Sequence record: PZ452591.1
From: a phage
Direction: 5' to 3' (one strand)
DNA: 64,000 nt
Part shown: piece after piece, positions 24,037 to 42,561 of the stretch
Layout: every line of letters begins with the position of its first letter
How positions within the stretch are numbered: position 1 is the stretch's first letter
Made by a program: the position numbers and the translations under genes
The notes under the pieces: model-generated
The model's input: the letters and a program-made list of their open reading frames with translations, nothing else
What the model was told of the DNA's origin: nothing
Databases searched by the model: none

Positions 24037-25023
24037 TTATTTCAGAAGAGTAACCTCAGCGATTTCTTCCCAACCGTTTTTGTCGGTCATAATAAAGTCA
24101 GCAAGATAAAGAGCAGTACGCAGTGAAACATTGCGTAAACGATTAACATTGACTTTCATCCATGATAATGCTTTATAAGTTTCTTCATCAGAAAGACCGC
24201 GCTTTTGCATCATGTCGGTTGAAAGAATAACATCTTCAACCCTGACCATAATTTCTTCATTAGTGTGAACACCCAAATCTAAATAAACTGAGCGGGACAC
24301 TAATGCTTGTAAATGTGGAGCAAGTTTAGTACCACGGTCTAATTCGCGGTCAATGTCAACGTTTGTGATAAAAACAATCGTTCCTTTAAATTCAAACTCA
24401 CGCTCAATGCCTTTTTCTTCTAAGTAAGAAGATGCAGTGCTCCAGCAGACTTTACGGGTCTCTCCAGTGTCCAGAGCAGCTTTCAGAAGATTAAGAATGT
24501 CCATATCAGAGAAAACATCCACATCATCAATCAAAAGGACAGAATTCTCTTCACGATTATTCCAAAGCTGTTCATAAAGACCGATACCAGAGATTTTACC
24601 ATTAATGCTTTTATATTCAATGTATCCAATATCATTTGCTTTATTTAAAGCTTTATCCAAAGAATACGTTTTACCAATACCTGCTGCTCCCGAGATAATT
24701 AATGAACGAATGTTTCCGTTAATAATACCATTCGTCATCATTCCCATAACATTAAATCTTTTATTAATGCGGGTTTTCATATCTTCATATGATTCTTTAA
24801 CTTCTTCAACTTTTACACCATCATATGAAATGTCTGATTTGTAAACCCAAACACCGCGACGCTTACCGTCAATTTCAACAAAAACTTTACCATCTCCTTG
24901 TGCATCCACCGGAGCATTATCTGGGAACCATTCACCTAAGAGCTCAAAAGTTCCAGAGATTTCTTTACCGAAGTAGATACCCTTATTGATAGTTACAGTT
25001 TTCATTTTATTCTCCAAATCCAT
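24037..25023 (-). CDS. AAA+ family ATPase
   Basis: 328 aa; Walker A GAAGIGKT, Walker B VLLIDDVD, sensor-like FITN. Confidence 0.65.
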   Translation of the reverse strand: MDLENKMKTVTINKGIYFGKEISGTFELLGEWFPDNAPVDAQGDGKVFVEIDGKRRGVWVYKSDISYDGVKVEEVKESYEDMKTRINKRFNVMGMMTNGIINGNIRSLIISGAAGIGKTYSLDKALNKANDIGYIEYKSINGKISGIGLYEQLWNNREENSVLLIDDVDVFSDMDILNLLKAALDTGETRKVCWSTASSYLEEKGIEREFEFKGTIVFITNVDIDRELDRGTKLAPHLQALVSRSVYLDLGVHTNEEIMVRVEDVILSTDMMQKRGLSDEETYKALSWMKVNVNRLRNVSLRTALYLADFIMTDKNGWEEIAEVTLLK

Positions 25024-25039: not shown

Positions 25040-25069
25040 ATAGTACCATAAAGCTTTATGCTTGTAAAC
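25040..25069 (-). promoter_or_regulatory. early promoter upstream of AAA+ ATPase gene
   Basis: GTTTACA-17 nt-TGGTACTAT on minus strand, just downstream of a strong terminator. Confidence 0.55.
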
Positions 25070-25101
25070 CGTTTTGTGAAAAAAAAAATTTAAAATAAAA
25101 A

Positions 25102-25119
25102 GGGAGCCCGAAGGCTCCC
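25102..25119 (-). terminator. intrinsic terminator (UUCG-tetraloop hairpin plus U-run)
   Basis: Minus strand GGGAGCC-UUCG-GGCUCCC followed by UUUUUAUUUUAAAUUUUUUUUU. Confidence 0.7.
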
Positions 25120-25121
25120 TA

Positions 25122-26135
25122 TCATTTATAATAACTTCGATGGTTTTCAAGATAGACTTTCTCAAGGAAGTCATCCCAAAAACCCATGTCCACTTTTTGC
25201 TGCATACCGTTCTTAGAAGCTTCAGTAGATGCTGCTTCTACTTGATCGACCACATCTTCCAAAAACTCTTGAACGGTTTTAAATGGATGTTTACCCAACT
25301 TCACGTCGAGAATAAATGGAGCGTCTTGAAGTGGATAAACCAAGTCGCCAGTTTTGTAAATTTCCAATAGTTGAAGTCCACCACGACAGGCATGGCTCAG
25401 AGCTTTCCAGTCAATGCCTTCGTTGGCTTCGGCCTTACGAGCGCGTTCACCATATTCAGCATCTAATTTGTTCAGTGACTGCTTAATCTCAATAAGAGAA
25501 AGCGTTGTCTGATATTTACGACCCAACACAGTGTAGAACGTTTGTGGGCCTGTTTTCTCATGATTATGGAACACCCATTCACAGAATTCATTTTCTGGAA
25601 GACGATGCTTAATATCTTCAACTTTAGTGCGACGCTGCTTAATAGAACCATCTTCTTGGTAATCAACCCATTGCTCGGGGATTTGATTAACTACTTTCAA
25701 TACATCACGTAATGCAGCCAAACGAGAACCCTTGACACCGTATTTAGAAGCTTGCTTGCGAACATATCCTAAATATGATTTCATGTTAGTCGTATAAAAA
25801 CGAGAACGGTTGTCTTGAATAAACTTCCACACGTCAGGCAAATCAGATTTAACCACTAGTTCAGGTGGAGTGTGAAGCATATCTAATGCTACAGTTTCAC
25901 CATCTGCTGCTAATTTAAAGAAATACTTAAGACTATACAATTCGTGGTCAATATCATCTTTAGTGTTTTTAGATGATGTGTTGTTAGTGTTTTTACTCAT
26001 GTGCTCTTTAACGTTTCCGATAAGAATATCGCGAGCAGGAGGAACAAAAATTTCTTTAAAATCTACATCAGATTCTGGGGTAGAAGTTCCATAAAGATGA
26101 CTACCAAAATAGCTTTTCATTACTGTTTTCATCAT
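25122..26135 (-). CDS. pol-beta-superfamily nucleotidyltransferase-fold protein
   Basis: 337 aa; N-terminal GS-x10-DVD motif (FGSHLYGTSTPESDVDF) with downstream acidic DIDHE. Confidence 0.55.
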   Translation of the reverse strand: MMKTVMKSYFGSHLYGTSTPESDVDFKEIFVPPARDILIGNVKEHMSKNTNNTSSKNTKDDIDHELYSLKYFFKLAADGETVALDMLHTPPELVVKSDLPDVWKFIQDNRSRFYTTNMKSYLGYVRKQASKYGVKGSRLAALRDVLKVVNQIPEQWVDYQEDGSIKQRRTKVEDIKHRLPENEFCEWVFHNHEKTGPQTFYTVLGRKYQTTLSLIEIKQSLNKLDAEYGERARKAEANEGIDWKALSHACRGGLQLLEIYKTGDLVYPLQDAPFILDVKLGKHPFKTVQEFLEDVVDQVEAASTEASKNGMQQKVDMGFWDDFLEKVYLENHRSYYK

Positions 26136-26593
26136 TCAGCCTTATATTCAATAACAGGACATACTTTAGCTTTACGAGCTTTTAAAAATTCAACGATAAC
26201 CGATTTCTTGGGTTGAATAGGAGGTAAACCTTTATACGCCCTATCAATATTTTCTACGTGTAAAGCATAATCCTTTTTCCATTTATAATCTTTATATTTT
26301 TCACGCAAATATGCAGGAATAACAAATGAACCGATAATAAGTAAAACAACCAAAAGCGCAAGTATAAATGCCGATGGAAGAAGAGTCCATAAACTACCGA
26401 AAATAAGCCAACGTTGTAGGCTTTCTGCACAAATAATTGTTAGCCCTACGAGTATAGCACATCCAAAAATAGAAACGAAAAATGTAGGAATGGCAATAGA
26501 CCAAAAATATGCGCATAATGTCTTGGGTCGTTGCCATTCATCGTTAAACAATTTGAATAATTTATAGTGCCAAGAGTTTTCATTAATAATCAT
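26132..26593 (-). CDS. integral membrane protein
   Basis: 153 aa with ~3 predicted TM helices; stop overlaps NTase ATG (ATGA). Confidence 0.55.
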   Translation of the reverse strand: MIINENSWHYKLFKLFNDEWQRPKTLCAYFWSIAIPTFFVSIFGCAILVGLTIICAESLQRWLIFGSLWTLLPSAFILALLVVLLIIGSFVIPAYLREKYKDYKWKKDYALHVENIDRAYKGLPPIQPKKSVIVEFLKARKAKVCPVIEYKAE

Positions 26594-26595
26594 AA

Positions 26596-27117
26596 TTATC
26601 CTTTCATTGAAGGCGTAACGGTTGTTAAATACTTAATCATAGCTTCAGCTTCTGATTTTGACAATGAAATTTCTCCATTGTTTTGACGAATAGAAATAAA
26701 ATCCGGATGACGGTCACCACCAGCTTTTAAAACATACATATAAGTATCAACTTCGCCTTCAATATTTGAAATGATTGAAGCAGTTCCACATGAATGCGGT
26801 TTTTGATAAATCAATACAGCTTTTCTTCCACCGTTTGACTGTTCATAGGCTTTTAATACATCAAACAAATCAGTTCTTTTATCAATAGCTAAAATGTTAT
26901 TTTCATCTTCAATGTTAAATCCTTCGGATACTTCATAAAGTGTCACCCATAAATCGCCAATATCAATAACAGCATTTACGTTTCCACGGCTTTCAAGAGC
27001 ATGACAAATTTTCTTGATTTCGTCATAACTCATTTTAATAATATCATCTCCTTGAATAAGAAAGATGTCATTTTTAAATTCAACACGAATTAAACCACTT
27101 CCACTTGAAATAAACAT
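26596..27117 (-). CDS. hypothetical protein, paralog of 27124-27681
   Basis: 173 aa; shared GFNI and C-terminal EA.A..KYL..V.P.M motifs. Confidence 0.55.
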   Translation of the reverse strand: MFISSGSGLIRVEFKNDIFLIQGDDIIKMSYDEIKKICHALESRGNVNAVIDIGDLWVTLYEVSEGFNIEDENNILAIDKRTDLFDVLKAYEQSNGGRKAVLIYQKPHSCGTASIISNIEGEVDTYMYVLKAGGDRHPDFISIRQNNGEISLSKSEAEAMIKYLTTVTPSMKG

Positions 27118-27123
27118 ATTTCC

Positions 27124-27681
27124 TCACTTTGAAATCATAGTTGGAATAACAGAATCAAGATAAGTCTTTAGCGCAATAGCTTCGTCTTTGGTAAATGTAA
27201 TGATATGTGATCGAAAATCGTCAATTTGGCGAATAGTTAAGACATCTCCCTCTTCATAACATTTTGATACATTTAAAAGAGTTTCATCATTCTGATTGCA
27301 AGCGTTAGTAATAATAGCATTGCAATTTTTGAGCCATTTTAAACTATGTTTTCTTTCATTAGAATAATAAAAATATTTAATCTTAGCTATAAAACTATCC
27401 CAATGGATAACTGATAAACACATTGACTCACTTTTAATATTAAATCCTGGGCATGAAGAATAAAAATGAATTTTGTGCTCATCATTGATGCTTACTATTT
27501 TATCAGTATAAGGATATTCAATTTGGGTTAAATGAATGATTTCACTAGGCGTAAAATATAGCATATCGTCTTCTTGCGTCAAACGATACATGTTATTTAC
27601 TTTTTCTATAGTCAATTCACCAAAAAGCGGACTAACTTCTAATACTAATCGTTTCATATTGATTCTCTTCGACTCACTCAC
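27124..27681 (-). CDS. hypothetical protein, paralog of 26596-27117 (start may be ATG at 27657)
   Basis: 185-aa track ORF begins at GTG; ATG at 27657 preceded by AAGAGAA. Confidence 0.55.
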   Translation of the reverse strand: MSESKRINMKRLVLEVSPLFGELTIEKVNNMYRLTQEDDMLYFTPSEIIHLTQIEYPYTDKIVSINDEHKIHFYSSCPGFNIKSESMCLSVIHWDSFIAKIKYFYYSNERKHSLKWLKNCNAIITNACNQNDETLLNVSKCYEEGDVLTIRQIDDFRSHIITFTKDEAIALKTYLDSVIPTMISK

Positions 27682-27816
27682 AATTACATACTCCTTTGAA
27701 TAATATCAATAATGTTGTTCACCAGATTATAAGTAAACATTGGGTAATTATATTGAATCATCACATACACAACAAACAAAACTTTCATTCTCTTCTCCTT
27801 GGCAGTTGACAAGATT

Positions 27817-27846
27817 ACTATACCATAACCTTGCCAACTTGTAAAC
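27817..27846 (-). promoter_or_regulatory. early promoter of the four-gene NTase operon
   Basis: GTTTACA-17 nt-TATAGT; -10 element lies within inverted repeat GTTGGCAAG/CTTGTCAAC. Confidence 0.5.
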
Positions 27847-28658: not shown

Positions 28659-28674
28659 CGGTAAAATGAAAAAA

Positions 28675-28690
28675 GTCTCCCGAAGGAGAC
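28675..28690 (-). terminator. intrinsic terminator
   Basis: Minus strand GUCUCC-UUCG-GGAGAC followed by UUUUUUCAUUUU, after rI.-1-position gene. Confidence 0.65.
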
Positions 28691-28695
28691 TAATG

Positions 28696-41113: not shown

Positions 41114-41190
<77 letters not shown>

Positions 41191-41193
41191 TAA

Positions 41194-41859
41194 TTAAAAT
41201 TTCATTTTTCGACCTTTAAACCATCCTTCTGGAATTGGGTCAGTTTTCTTAATACGTTTAGAAACTTTTTCATCTAATGAATGAATCCACATCATACCAA
41301 ATTGGGAATTCTTTTCGCCCTGTTGGTGTTTATTTCTGGCGTGAGATTCTTTCATTTTATTAATAGTTTCAGGAGTATGATGCTTATTTAAAAATCTGCT
41401 ATTATTTAAAAATTTTTCCCTGTATTCAGGAGTTGACCACAAGCGTTTAAATACATTTGAACCATGTTTACGATATTTTTCTTGAAGTAAAATATCATTT
41501 TTAAAACGTGACTTAAACGATTTAGCTCCTTTTAAACTAGCGTCTTTCTTCTGGTTTAGCATCCCAGGAATATTTATATGGTCCCATCCACCTTCACCTC
41601 CAAGTTTTAAATTATACACATCTGGTCTATTTAAAAACTCTTCTGTGACAATATTTTTCTCGGCTTCAAGCATAGATTCTTTATCATCAAAATACTCTAA
41701 TATTTCTTTAGAAAAATTTTCTATACCATATTTATCTTGGGCTCTTTTTAATAATTTACCAGAACCCATATATCCATCATCTAAATTTTCGGTAGAATGC
41801 ACACCAATATAAATTTTATTATTAATTTTATTTGTTATTTTATAAGTGTAATGGAACAT
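41194..41859 (-). CDS. segB: GIY-YIG homing endonuclease
   Basis: 221 aa, N-terminal YTYKITNKINNKIYIGVHS GIY-YIG module; inserted between tRNA-Ile and tRNA-Arg as T4 segB. Confidence 0.8.
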   Translation of the reverse strand: MFHYTYKITNKINNKIYIGVHSTENLDDGYMGSGKLLKRAQDKYGIENFSKEILEYFDDKESMLEAEKNIVTEEFLNRPDVYNLKLGGEGGWDHINIPGMLNQKKDASLKGAKSFKSRFKNDILLQEKYRKHGSNVFKRLWSTPEYREKFLNNSRFLNKHHTPETINKMKESHARNKHQQGEKNSQFGMMWIHSLDEKVSKRIKKTDPIPEGWFKGRKMKF

Positions 41860-41899
41860 AAATATCTCCTATTTCTAAGAGTATTTATGTTCCCAAAAT

Positions 41900-41971
41900 A
41901 TGGCCCTGGGTGGAATTGAACCACCATCTGGCGATTATGAGTCGCTTGCTTGAACCTTCCAGCTACAGGGC
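41900..41971 (-). tRNA. tRNA-Ile (anticodon CAU, lysidine type)
   Basis: Anticodon arm GCGACTCATAATCGC as in tRNA-Ile2; no encoded CCA. Confidence 0.7.
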
Positions 41972-41972
41972 C

Positions 41973-42048
41973 TTGGTGCTGATTGACGGAATCGAACCGC
42001 CGACGTCCTCATTACAAGTGAGGTGCTCTACCTACTGAGCTAAATCAG
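41973..42048 (-). tRNA. tRNA-Thr (anticodon UGU)
   Basis: Cloverleaf with anticodon loop CTTGTAA, T-loop TTCGATT, CCA encoded. Confidence 0.85.
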
Positions 42049-42050
42049 CA

Positions 42051-42137
42051 ACGGAGGCGATAGGATTTGAACCTATGAGTCGCCGGAGCGACTGCCGGTT
42101 TTCAAGACCGGTGCATTAAACCACTCTGCCACGCCTC
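42051..42137 (-). tRNA. tRNA-Ser (anticodon UGA)
   Basis: Type II tRNA with long variable arm, anticodon loop CTTGAAA; no encoded CCA. Confidence 0.85.
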
Positions 42138-42139
42138 CA

Positions 42140-42213
42140 GTCTCCGTGGCAGGATTTGAACCTACGACATTCTGCTCCCAAAGCAGACGCTCTACCAAAC
42201 TGAGCTACACGGA
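42140..42213 (-). tRNA. tRNA-Pro (anticodon UGG)
   Basis: Anticodon loop TTTGGGA, D-arm GCTC-AGTTTGGTA-GAGC; no encoded CCA. Confidence 0.85.
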
Positions 42214-42223
42214 GTAAATTAAA

Positions 42224-42297
<74 letters not shown>

Positions 42298-42302
42298 CAA
42301 AT

Positions 42303-42389
42303 TTGGTGCGAGAAGTGGGACTCGAACCCACAAGGAAATCATTCCGCAGCATTTTAAGTGCTGTGCCTTTACCAATTTGACCATTCTCG
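42303..42389 (-). tRNA. tRNA-Leu (anticodon UAA)
   Basis: Type II tRNA, anticodon loop CTTAAAA, long variable arm, CCA encoded. Confidence 0.85.
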
Positions 42390-42390
42390 C

Positions 42391-42463
42391 GCTGGGAATA
42401 AAGGACTCGAACCTTTGCATCCTGGAATCAAAATCCAGTGCCTTACCAACTTGGCTAATTCCC
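42391..42463 (-). tRNA. tRNA-Gln (anticodon UUG)
   Basis: Anticodon loop TTTTGAT, acceptor TGGGAAT/ATTCCCA; no encoded CCA, 1 nt from tRNA-Leu. Confidence 0.85.
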
Positions 42464-42561
42464 AATTATTAACAAAGGCTCTCTAACAAGAACCCTTGAT
42501 GATAGAGGGTATTAATCAGTGCAGTATGAGTTAATAATAACAAATAATTCTTAAAGCATAT

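Follow-up and report, generated by a model that had tools for sequence, protein, structure and literature searches.

Two questions are raised by a compact operon in phage PZ452591.1: whether its genes serve a common function, and what is done by the nucleotidyltransferase encoded at its 3′ end. The window analysed here is a stretch of 64,000 nt, in which the operon comprises five closely spaced genes on the minus strand that share one promoter and one terminator.

Layout and transcription signals of the operon

Read from 5′ to 3′, the genes encode MobD.2 (34 aa, 27684..27788), MobD.1 (185 aa, 27124..27681), a paralogue of MobD.1 (173 aa, 26596..27117), a 153-aa membrane protein (26132..26593) and the 337-aa NrdC.11 (25122..26135). 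From MobD.1 onwards, the junctions consist of a 6-nt gap, a 2-nt gap and a 4-nt ATGA overlap. Upstream lies a T4-type early promoter (27817..27846, minus strand; GGTTTACAAG...TATGG TATAGT), which a consensus scan resolved as TTTACA-17-TATAGT with a TG extension (27845-27817; 10/12 matches). The extended T4 early core, GTTTACA-N12-TATGGTA, has exact matches at 27846-27821 and 25069-25044. In all, nine copies are present across the window, every one on the minus strand, against a chance expectation of 0.83. The copy at 25069-25044 falls within the next T4-type early promoter (25040..25069, minus strand; exact motif match and consensus scan), which lies outside the operon and marks its boundary, starting a separate unit for the AAA ATPase NrdC.10. 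The NrdC.11 unit itself is closed by an intrinsic terminator (25101..25120, minus strand) with an 8-bp stem, six pairs of which are GC, a UUCG loop and a U-run (-18.4 kcal/mol, z = -4.35). A preliminary description of this DNA had seen tightly packed genes bracketed by a promoter and a terminator and forming one unit. This was confirmed, with the ORFs at the minus-strand positions given above and both signals recovered by scanning.

The operon promoter and terminator are already annotated in the near-identical public record SA21RB, and the region shares 97-98% identity with AR1, G10400 and T2. The operon is an early transcription unit of many Tequatrovirus (T-even) phages and sits within the variable nrdC-rI accessory region. 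It would be transcribed by the host RNA polymerase immediately after infection, with transcription ending at the hairpin terminator, and the early promoter fits a role that is required as infection begins.

Proteins encoded upstream of NrdC.11

The first gene carries a GGAG Shine-Dalgarno sequence and its product (phrog_3515, E = 6.5e-22) is 91% identical to T4 MobD.2 and 62% identical to the Mosigvirus copy. The earlier reading as a hydrophobic mini-ORF was half right: this is a real gene, annotated in T4 as MobD.2, but its hydrophobicity is only moderate (maximum 19-residue Kyte-Doolittle score of 1.02).

The next two proteins had been taken for paralogues, and the comparison bears this out. 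MobD.1 and the 173-aa protein align over their full length at 27% identity (E = 5e-8), with the GFNI and C-terminal EA.A...YL..V.P.M motifs present in the alignment. Both contain the Pfam domains PF24449 (133.2 bits in MobD.1 and 115.4 bits in the paralogue, gathering cutoff 24.9) and PF24448 (74.8 and 78.2 bits respectively, cutoff 27) of the y05I family. MobD.1 starts at a GTG codon; an ATG eight codons downstream would give a 177-aa form, as annotated in AR1. The y05I family is small and genus-restricted, with 34 clusters from Tequatrovirus and Mosigvirus-like phages. Copies of the paralogue are present in 444 phage records, with identities of 90% or higher in nearly all of them, and the gene is missing from the T4 locus; it is a duplication restricted to Tequatrovirus, of which T4 has no copy. 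A structure model of MobD.1, built from a 14-row alignment, gives the N-terminal domain a Whirly/PUR-like fold with a beta4-alpha repeat, and both proteins are accordingly predicted to bind single-stranded nucleic acid through this domain. Sequence identity to Whirly, PUR-repeat and MRP1-MRP2 proteins is just 5-13%, and unlike these binders MobD.1 and its paralogue carry an additional C-terminal domain (PF24448) of uncertain structure. Literature searches returned no functional study of MobD.1 or y05I.

The 153-aa protein (phrog_944 'membrane protein', E = 2.4e-50) is predicted from its sequence to be a small inner-membrane protein. It had been credited with about three transmembrane helices. 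Its membrane character stands, but the two long hydrophobic stretches, at residues 25-60 and 62-98, allow anything from two to four helices. In Mosigvirus, Moon and Ac42, as well as in metagenomic Acinetobacter-phage-like contigs, homologous genes are located a short way upstream of NrdC.11.

NrdC.11 and its relatives

The preliminary description knew of no T4 protein matching the 337-aa enzyme. This proved false, as it is T4 NrdC.11 at 98.5% identity across all 337 residues (phrog_388, E = 8.5e-137). The T4 protein has been known as a nucleotidyltransferase since 2006 (PMC1524935), and a 2025 preprint lists it in cluster 5 of the RlaP family (PMC12776372). The RlaP model PF10127 matches NrdC.11 with 44.2 bits (E = 2.5e-11), above its gathering cutoff of 23, the match being limited to the nucleotidyltransferase (NTase) domain (residues 7-135). 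All of 57 diverse homologues, 34-55% identical to NrdC.11, also match PF10127 (best E = 2.2e-19). Across these sequences no substitution occurs at G11, S12 or D63, and conservation reaches 90% or more at D23, D25 and D85; in the closer homologue set D23 and D25 do not vary either. In an hhalign comparison the GS, DxD, D63 and D85 positions align with the invariant GS, D49/D51, D88 and E110 of short RlaPs. The proposed NTase signature and Pol-beta fold therefore held, with G11 S12 and D23xD25 invariant or nearly so. The downstream acidic DIDHE supplies D63 as the conserved third catalytic carboxylate, and the suggested check on the catalytic acidic residues found them conserved throughout the 57 sequences.

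An AF2 model (pLDDT 93.9) divides the protein into an N-terminal NTase domain, a beta-rich insert (~155-209) and a helical C-terminal domain (214-336). Alignment with canonical RlaP is limited to the N-terminal ~95 residues (hhalign probability 72%). The C-terminal half, including the insert, is specific to the long form and unaligned to short RlaPs; therefore, substrate choice could differ from that of canonical RlaP. The solved structures nearest to the model are HalB, the NTase-like protein 3c18, kanamycin nucleotidyltransferase and HEPN-like bundles. Hailong HalB, kanamycin nucleotidyltransferase and 3c18 share 9-15% identity with NrdC.11 and are relatives at the level of the fold only; HalB makes an oligo-dA signal and kanamycin nucleotidyltransferase acts on an aminoglycoside, unlike the substrate proposed below. 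Searches of PDB sequences with NrdC.11 alone and with the 57-sequence profile gave no meaningful match, and no RlaP structure was recovered from the PDB by sequence or by structure.

NrdC.11 is thus a long-form RlaP-family nucleotidyltransferase of the Pol-beta type, and by analogy would have the corresponding activity. It shares with the canonical RlaPs of P. fluorescens and P. aeruginosa the PF10127 domain, the GS/DxD/third-Asp catalytic set, and homologues associated with RtcB, Pnkp and Hen1. In the PfRlaP crystal structure an N-terminal NTase domain and a C-terminal helical domain form a cleft, and the modelled succession of an NTase and a helical domain in NrdC.11 may correspond to this arrangement. 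However, NrdC.11 is about 330 aa long rather than about 270 aa, adds the beta-rich insert, falls in cluster 5 rather than 1a of the preprint's sequence similarity network (PMC12776372) and, in this phage, lies outside an RNA ligase operon.

The enzyme families put forward at the outset (CD-NTase/cGAS, AbiEii, MNT and CCA-adding enzymes) found no support, PF10127 being the sole Pfam family above threshold and PADLOC empty. No Pfam or PADLOC match to cGAS/CD-NTase was obtained, and none of these enzymes is among the top structural neighbours. The AbiEii/MenT toxin NTases were likewise unmatched in both collections, and the genes alongside encode y05I and membrane proteins rather than regulators resembling AbiEi. 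For the MNT antitoxin of HEPN-MNT, no match to an NTP_transf_2/MNT model partnered by a HEPN toxin gene was obtained, and a CCA-adding enzyme is without family or fold support. For six proteins searched against NCBIfam and PADLOC nothing useful emerged; faint PADLOC hits to PDC-M39A and PbeA (E about 2-4e-3) were judged to be noise.

The genome scan for NrdC.11-type homologues used a closer set of 13 sequences, and neighbourhoods were sampled at 80 bacterial and archaeal loci with full-length homologues over a range of 6 kb. RtcB, Pnkp or a Pnk-phosphatase-Rnl1 fusion, Hen1 or Ro60/TROVE was encoded within 6 kb at 25 of the 80 loci, often adjoining, and a canonical short RlaP lay immediately downstream at 29. 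Neither a repair gene nor a second RlaP was nearby at 38/80. The long-form RlaP clade itself occurs in bacterial RtcB, Pnkp-Hen1 and Ro60 operons, an observation that is new here. Several clusters of apparently recurrent neighbours at high-GC bacterial loci were discarded as spurious ORFs in other frames, overlapping the NTase gene. Among phages, two genes for RNA ligases lie within ~5 kb of NrdC.11 in Sinorhizobium phage phiM7, and no RNA ligase or kinase gene lies inside the NrdC.11 operon of the present phage. In jumbo phages the distribution of RlaP parallels that of RNA ligases (PMC7824862).

Proposed role and alternatives

The characterised enzymes PfRlaP and PaRlaP add one to two NMP to an RNA 3′-OH in a Mn2+-dependent reaction and favour mimics of cleaved tRNA; they also partly restore the aminoacylation of tRNA that is short of one anticodon-loop nucleotide (PMC12776372). 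NrdC.11 is the only component of the operon with an assignable mechanism, and its enzymatic activity, tRNA substrate and role against nucleotide-excising nucleases can be proposed by analogy. D23, D25 and D63 would hold two divalent metal ions, probably Mn2+, and the enzyme would extend the 3′-OH of a broken RNA by one or two nucleotides in a template-independent manner, as the characterised RlaPs do. Its likely substrate would be the 5′ fragment left when an RloC-type host anticodon nuclease cleaves the anticodon loop of a tRNA and removes a nucleotide from it. Once the gap had been filled, the ends would be sealed by the phage's Pnk and RNA ligases, encoded elsewhere in T-even genomes. Some functional tRNA would be regained and translation would continue, making NrdC.11 a counter-defence addition to the classic T4 tRNA-repair pathway. 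We consider it reasonably probable that this explains the locus, namely as an early unit in which NrdC.11 repairs cut tRNA as a counter-defence, and the earlier suggestion of a phage counter-defence is plausibly right in this broad sense.

The action of T4 Pnk and Rnl1 against PrrC is a proposed parallel, in that a phage likewise repairs tRNA after cleavage by a suicide nuclease of its host (PMC12776372). However, classic Pnk and Rnl1 heal and seal a simple cut, whereas NrdC.11 would first replace the excised nucleotides, and the Pnk and Rnl1 genes are unlinked to nrdC.11. RloC-type nucleases are thought to have evolved specifically against the heal-and-seal tRNA repair of T4. If NrdC.11 replaces the nucleotides that they remove, an old question would be answered, namely whether phages are able to overcome such nucleases. 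We know of no natural E. coli nucleotide-excising nuclease shown to restrict T-even phages. The idea is readily testable, as more than 1,500 sequenced phages encode NrdC.11 and the gene can be deleted without difficulty. In T4, the nrdC.11-mobD.3 block is dispensable under laboratory conditions (PMC9825161).

Alternatively, the operon could act as one integrated module, in which the MobD.1 paralogues would capture single-stranded RNA ends such as tRNA halves (or other single-stranded RNA or DNA), the membrane protein would localise or regulate the complex and NrdC.11 would modify the bound ends. The common promoter and terminator, the 2-6 nt spacers and the ATGA overlap coupling the membrane gene to NrdC.11 are consistent with this, as is the modelled resemblance of the MobD.1 N-terminal domain to binders of single-stranded DNA and RNA. 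Moreover, the order of y05I, membrane and NTase genes is kept in Mosigvirus, and in Moon with a y05I gene reduced to the C-terminal domain, while in Acinetobacter-type phages the RlaP gene is still preceded, at a distance of one or two genes, by a membrane homologue, even at 26-30% identity. However, the vs-rI-nrdC region is syntenic throughout the Straboviridae, and gene adjacency is therefore weak evidence for integration. NrdC.11 was found in 1,518 phage records, and its partner genes in 855, 727 and 444. T4 works without the paralogue and the membrane gene: directly upstream of nrdC.11 their slot is occupied by the HNH homing endonuclease mobD, whereas the present phage, AR1, RB32 and T2 carry the two genes there, the position upstream of NrdC.10, the terminator and the early promoter being alike in all. 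RB43 and the Vibrio (PVA23) and Sinorhizobium (phiM7) phages have NrdC.11 without any operon partner, y05I or membrane-protein homologues accompany it at none (0/80) of the bacterial NrdC.11-type loci, and the y05I family is tiny and confined in its range. The operon genes are transcribed together but do not constitute a conserved functional module, and the 'self-contained module' of the preliminary description is unsupported as a functional unit. We regard an integrated module as unlikely. It is also improbable that the MobD.1 paralogues, possibly with the membrane protein, hand broken tRNA or single-stranded RNA ends to NrdC.11 within a phage module for RNA-end repair or editing that would extend Pnk/Rnl to nucleotide-excising nucleases.

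NrdC.11 might instead be offensive, tailing the 3′ ends of host tRNA or mRNA in the manner of MenT/AbiEii toxins and thereby causing an early shut-off of translation or marking RNA for decay. In vitro RlaPs do extend a broad range of cellular RNAs, full-length tRNA and rRNA among them, and discriminate little between NTPs (PMC12776372), the promoter points to early expression, and nucleotides added to intact or simply cut tRNA would be expected to reduce its activity. Nevertheless, RlaPs act preferentially on the broken end of the anticodon loop, and less so on the acceptor end (PMC12776372), the bacterial homologues are found in repair operons with RtcB, Pnkp-Hen1 and Ro60 and not in toxin-antitoxin pairs, and AbiEii/MenT is absent from the Pfam and PADLOC results, so that an attack on host RNA seems doubtful at best. 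A signalling or decoy enzyme resembling cGAS/CD-NTase or HalB, whose short oligonucleotides would either set off a host immune pathway or block it, is very unlikely indeed. The identity to HalB is just 15% and confined to the common NTase core, the top structural matches and the Pfam and PADLOC searches returned no cGAS/CD-NTase, and family membership and gene neighbourhoods indicate RNA-end repair instead.

The repair of RNA ends by NrdC.11 is already an idea in the literature, where the RlaP concept is credited to Burroughs and Aravind and the 2025 preprint names T4 NrdC.11 (PMC12776372), and the present analysis supplies supporting detail rather than a new system. To this idea are added the assignment of the catalytic triad to D23, D25 and D63, the presence of the long-form clade in repair operons, where a short RlaP frequently accompanies it in tandem, and the modelled resemblance of the upstream MobD.1 paralogues to single-stranded nucleic-acid binders of the Whirly/PUR type.

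Gene content and transcription of the unit

The window is a segment of a T-even (Tequatrovirus) phage genome, and the 5-kb stretch around the unit is 97-98% identical to AR1, G10400, T2 and hundreds of other phages. All genes of the unit are catalogued T-even genes, and the ORF positions in the preliminary description proved exact. On the minus strand they are T4 MobD.2 (34 aa, 27788-27684); MobD.1 (185 aa, GTG start, 27681-27124), 87.5% identical to its T4 counterpart and annotated in AR1 as a 177-aa form starting at an internal ATG; a 173-aa protein (27117-26596); a 153-aa membrane protein (phrog_944, 26593-26132) marked by a pair of long hydrophobic stretches; and the 337-aa NrdC.11 (26135-25122). 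Spacers of 2, 6 and 2 nt separate the first four ORFs in turn, and the last two ORFs overlap by 4 nt (ATGA). The suspected paralogy of the 185- and 173-aa proteins was confirmed: they share 27% identity (E = 5e-8) and both match PF24449 and PF24448, domains that Pfam labels 'y05I-like putative transcription factor'. The statement that no T4 protein matches was incorrect, as the 337-aa protein is 98.5% identical to T4 NrdC.11; orthologs have been assigned a nucleotidyltransferase COG match since 2006 (PMC1524935). In T4 the genes run MobD.2, MobD.1, MobD (an HNH homing endonuclease), NrdC.11, NrdC.10, so that the 173-aa paralog and the membrane gene are absent there and mobD fills their slot (our comparison; PMC2988022).

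The unit is preceded by a promoter, TTTACA-17-TATAGT with a TG extension, which is an exact extended T4 early-promoter core (GTTTACA-N12-TATGGTA). With up to 2 mismatches this core matches nine times in the window, 9/9 on the minus strand against a chance expectation of 0.83. These matches (12649, 20656, 23630, 25069, 27846, 28658, 33047, 40636 and 43804) outline the early transcription units of the 12624-43804 region. The unit ends in a GC-rich hairpin of 8 bp, closed by a UUCG loop and trailed by a U-run (-18.4 kcal/mol, z = -4.35), directly followed by a second exact early-promoter match that starts the NrdC.10 unit. All three signals, both promoters and the terminator, are also annotated in a near-identical public record. 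The genes therefore form a genuine promoter-to-terminator early transcription unit, as had been claimed, although read-through from promoters further upstream may also enter it. Another UUCG-loop hairpin terminator of the same architecture lies at 28674-28691 (minus strand; AGTCTCCTTCGGGAGACT then a T-run), upstream of the mobD.2a-mobD.5 small-gene block.

NrdC.10 (328 aa, 24037-25023, minus strand, own early promoter 25040-25069) usually lies just downstream of NrdC.11. It belongs to phrog_1250, of unknown function, and resembles an AAA/STAND ATPase through sub-threshold AAA_14/nSTAND3 matches. In Acinetobacter phage Ac42 it is better conserved than NrdC.11 (68% vs 54% identity). Misannotation through gene-name bleed is widespread in public records (window 25122-26135, 27124-27681): NrdC.11 is named 'thioredoxin' in many, from the nrdC locus name, and HNH homing endonuclease in one, while MobD.1 and MobD.5 are named 'molybdopterin-guanine dinucleotide biosynthesis protein MobD'.

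NrdC.11 as an RlaP nucleotidyltransferase

NrdC.11 is detectable in 1,518 phage records, from Escherichia, Klebsiella, Acinetobacter, Aeromonas, Vibrio and Sinorhizobium phages. It matches the RlaP family PF10127 (Pfam), as do 57/57 diverse relatives sampled. The family is large, with 3,424 clusters at 50% identity (E <= 1e-3), and the best-scoring 150 of these are mostly full-length matches. In an alignment of sequences with 34-55% identity to NrdC.11, residues G11, S12, G16, D63, Y124, Y132, K244, H248, R251, P268 and K279 are invariant, and D23, D25, D61, D85 and K131 are conserved in at least 90%. The AlphaFold model, which has high confidence (pLDDT 93.9), runs from strand 3-10 through a GS turn/helix to strand 24-31, which starts just past D23/D25, and strand 62-68, which bears D63; helices, a beta-rich insert (~155-209) and a helical C-terminal domain follow. 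Profile-profile alignment with canonical short RlaPs pairs GS with GS, D23/D25 with D49/D51, D63 with the invariant D88 and D85 with the invariant E110. Because of this pairing, D23, D25 and D63 are the predicted catalytic triad. The preliminary description was right to place a catalytic acidic site at DIDHE, and the acidic residues are conserved in homologs. Its assignment of the protein to the Pol-beta type was likewise right.

The families it had put forward, namely CD-NTase, AbiEii, MNT and CCA-adding enzymes, are unsupported, since no cGAS/CD-NTase structure was near the top of the structural matches and PADLOC and NCBIfam searches found nothing. Structural neighbours of the model include HEPN-like helical bundles, which match its C-domain. 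The supported family is RlaP, and both this assignment and the identity of the protein as NrdC.11 are practically certain.

RNA-repair neighbourhoods and proposed role

Since NrdC.11 and canonical RlaPs are alignable in the N-terminal domain only, the neighbourhoods of the long-form clade were surveyed for a link of this clade itself to RNA repair. With one genome scanned for each prokaryotic species, 172 relatives were found, of which the best 80 (full-length, 33-54% identity) were used; neighbours were clustered and representatives scanned against Pfam. Within 6 kb of the nucleotidyltransferase gene, RtcB occurred at 14 of these 80 loci, Pnkp or a Pnk-phosphatase-ligase fusion at 13, Hen1 at 8 and Ro60/TROVE at 7, with at least one of them at 25/80. 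Examples from the Pnkp group are an 841-aa Pnkp immediately upstream of the nucleotidyltransferase gene and a kinase-phosphatase-T4-Rnl1-type ligase fusion ending 7 nt ahead of it. In Sinorhizobium phage phiM7, two RNA ligase genes lie no more than ~5 kb from NrdC.11. These neighbourhoods are direct guilt-by-association evidence that NrdC.11-type enzymes act in RNA repair, and are the supporting evidence new in the present analysis.

A canonical short RlaP (~270 aa; full-length PF10127 match, 211 bits) lies directly downstream at 29 of the best 80 loci. This tandem of long (~325 aa) and short RlaP is found in L057:6001-7799, L069:2077-7787, L079, L077, L044 and 24 other bacterial loci; in Asticcacaulis the genes run Hen1, Pnkp, long RlaP, short RlaP. 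Long and short RlaPs may do different jobs in RNA-end repair that complement each other.

The feature is real yet already known: annotations of its genes exist for T4 and for hundreds of relatives, and RlaP is a named and biochemically characterised family. The concept is credited to a bioinformatic analysis by Burroughs and Aravind (as cited in PMC12776372), and was restated for jumbo phages, where RlaP distribution mirrors that of RNA ligases (PMC7824862). In a December 2025 preprint, two Pseudomonas RlaPs added 1 or 2 NMPs to RNA 3'-OH ends, did not extend DNA or protein, worked best with Mn2+ and, on a mimic of cleaved tRNA, favoured the broken end in the anticodon loop (PMC12776372). A tRNA that lacked one nucleotide of its anticodon loop partly regained aminoacylation when RlaP was applied before ligation, and the authors proposed that RlaP counteracts 'smart' ribotoxins, RloC among them, that cut and then excise a nucleotide. 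T4 NrdC.11 is explicitly listed as a member (cluster 5); both its assignment and the counter-RloC hypothesis are already published (PMC12776372).

The analysis shows the early promoter and terminator, the gene identities, RlaP membership, the conserved triad, the nucleotidyltransferase fold and the RNA-repair neighbourhoods of homologs, whereas the mechanism is inferred. We consider it fairly probable that NrdC.11 would extend the 3'-OH of damaged RNA by 1-2 nucleotides. Its likeliest substrates would be tRNA 5' halves that host anticodon nucleases have trimmed; phage Pnk and RNA ligases would then seal the RNA, and a fraction of functional tRNA would be regained. The genes for Pnk and the RNA ligases lie elsewhere in T-even genomes. 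T4 grows in the laboratory without the nrdC.11-mobD.3 block (PMC9825161), which fits an accessory counter-defence role. An eight-tRNA gene cluster (41117-42464, minus strand), which corresponds to the T4 tRNA region, may give the phage another, independent means of withstanding host tRNA nucleases.

Partner genes and alternative readings

The unit had been described as a self-contained operon and possible module, and the evidence is mostly against its being a functional module. The partners are rarer in phage records than NrdC.11 (1,518): 855 for the membrane protein, 727 for MobD.1-like proteins and 444 for the 173-aa paralog, the last nearly all from Tequatrovirus at >=90% identity. RB43, Vibrio phage PVA23 and phiM7 have NrdC.11 without any partner, and two partners are absent in T4. 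Profile searches found y05I or membrane homologs at 0/80 bacterial loci. The y05I family is very small, making up 34 clusters among 5.8 billion at 90% identity. Linkage does persist: Mosigvirus retains the order y05I, membrane, nucleotidyltransferase; Moon has a y05I C-domain-only gene, a membrane homolog, one unrelated gene and the nucleotidyltransferase; and in Acinetobacter-type phages membrane homologs lie 1-2 genes upstream of RlaP, even at 26-30% identity. Synteny in these phages nevertheless extends over the whole vs-rI-nrdC region, which makes the linkage weak evidence for a module. An integrated Whirly-membrane-nucleotidyltransferase system is improbable. Offensive tailing of RNA by NrdC.11 is likewise improbable next to a role in repair, and synthesis of signalling or decoy oligonucleotides highly so.

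The MobD.1 model, built from a 14-row alignment with 1/5 models confident, is reliable only over residues ~10-110 (pLDDT ~90), the C-domain being poorly predicted. Its Whirly/PUR-like N-domain probably explains the 'putative transcription factor' label of Pfam and suggests binding of single-stranded DNA or RNA. A literature search found no paper on MobD.1 or y05I function. The y05I domains can exist separately, since Moon107 of Citrobacter phage Moon (L005:2470-2757), two genes upstream of the membrane-protein homolog, is a small stand-alone C-terminal domain (phrog_7763-like). In the 179-aa y05I-family protein P0291 the N-terminal two-thirds are those of MobD.1 and the C-terminal third is that of the 173-aa paralog, an arrangement that points to recombination, or to a deletion, between the two tandem genes in some phages. 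Two Acinetobacter-phage-like metagenomic contigs (L010:4495-5390, L011:2963-3849) carry two paralogs of the small membrane protein in tandem (165 and 129 aa), with a 94-aa gene and the RlaP gene downstream.
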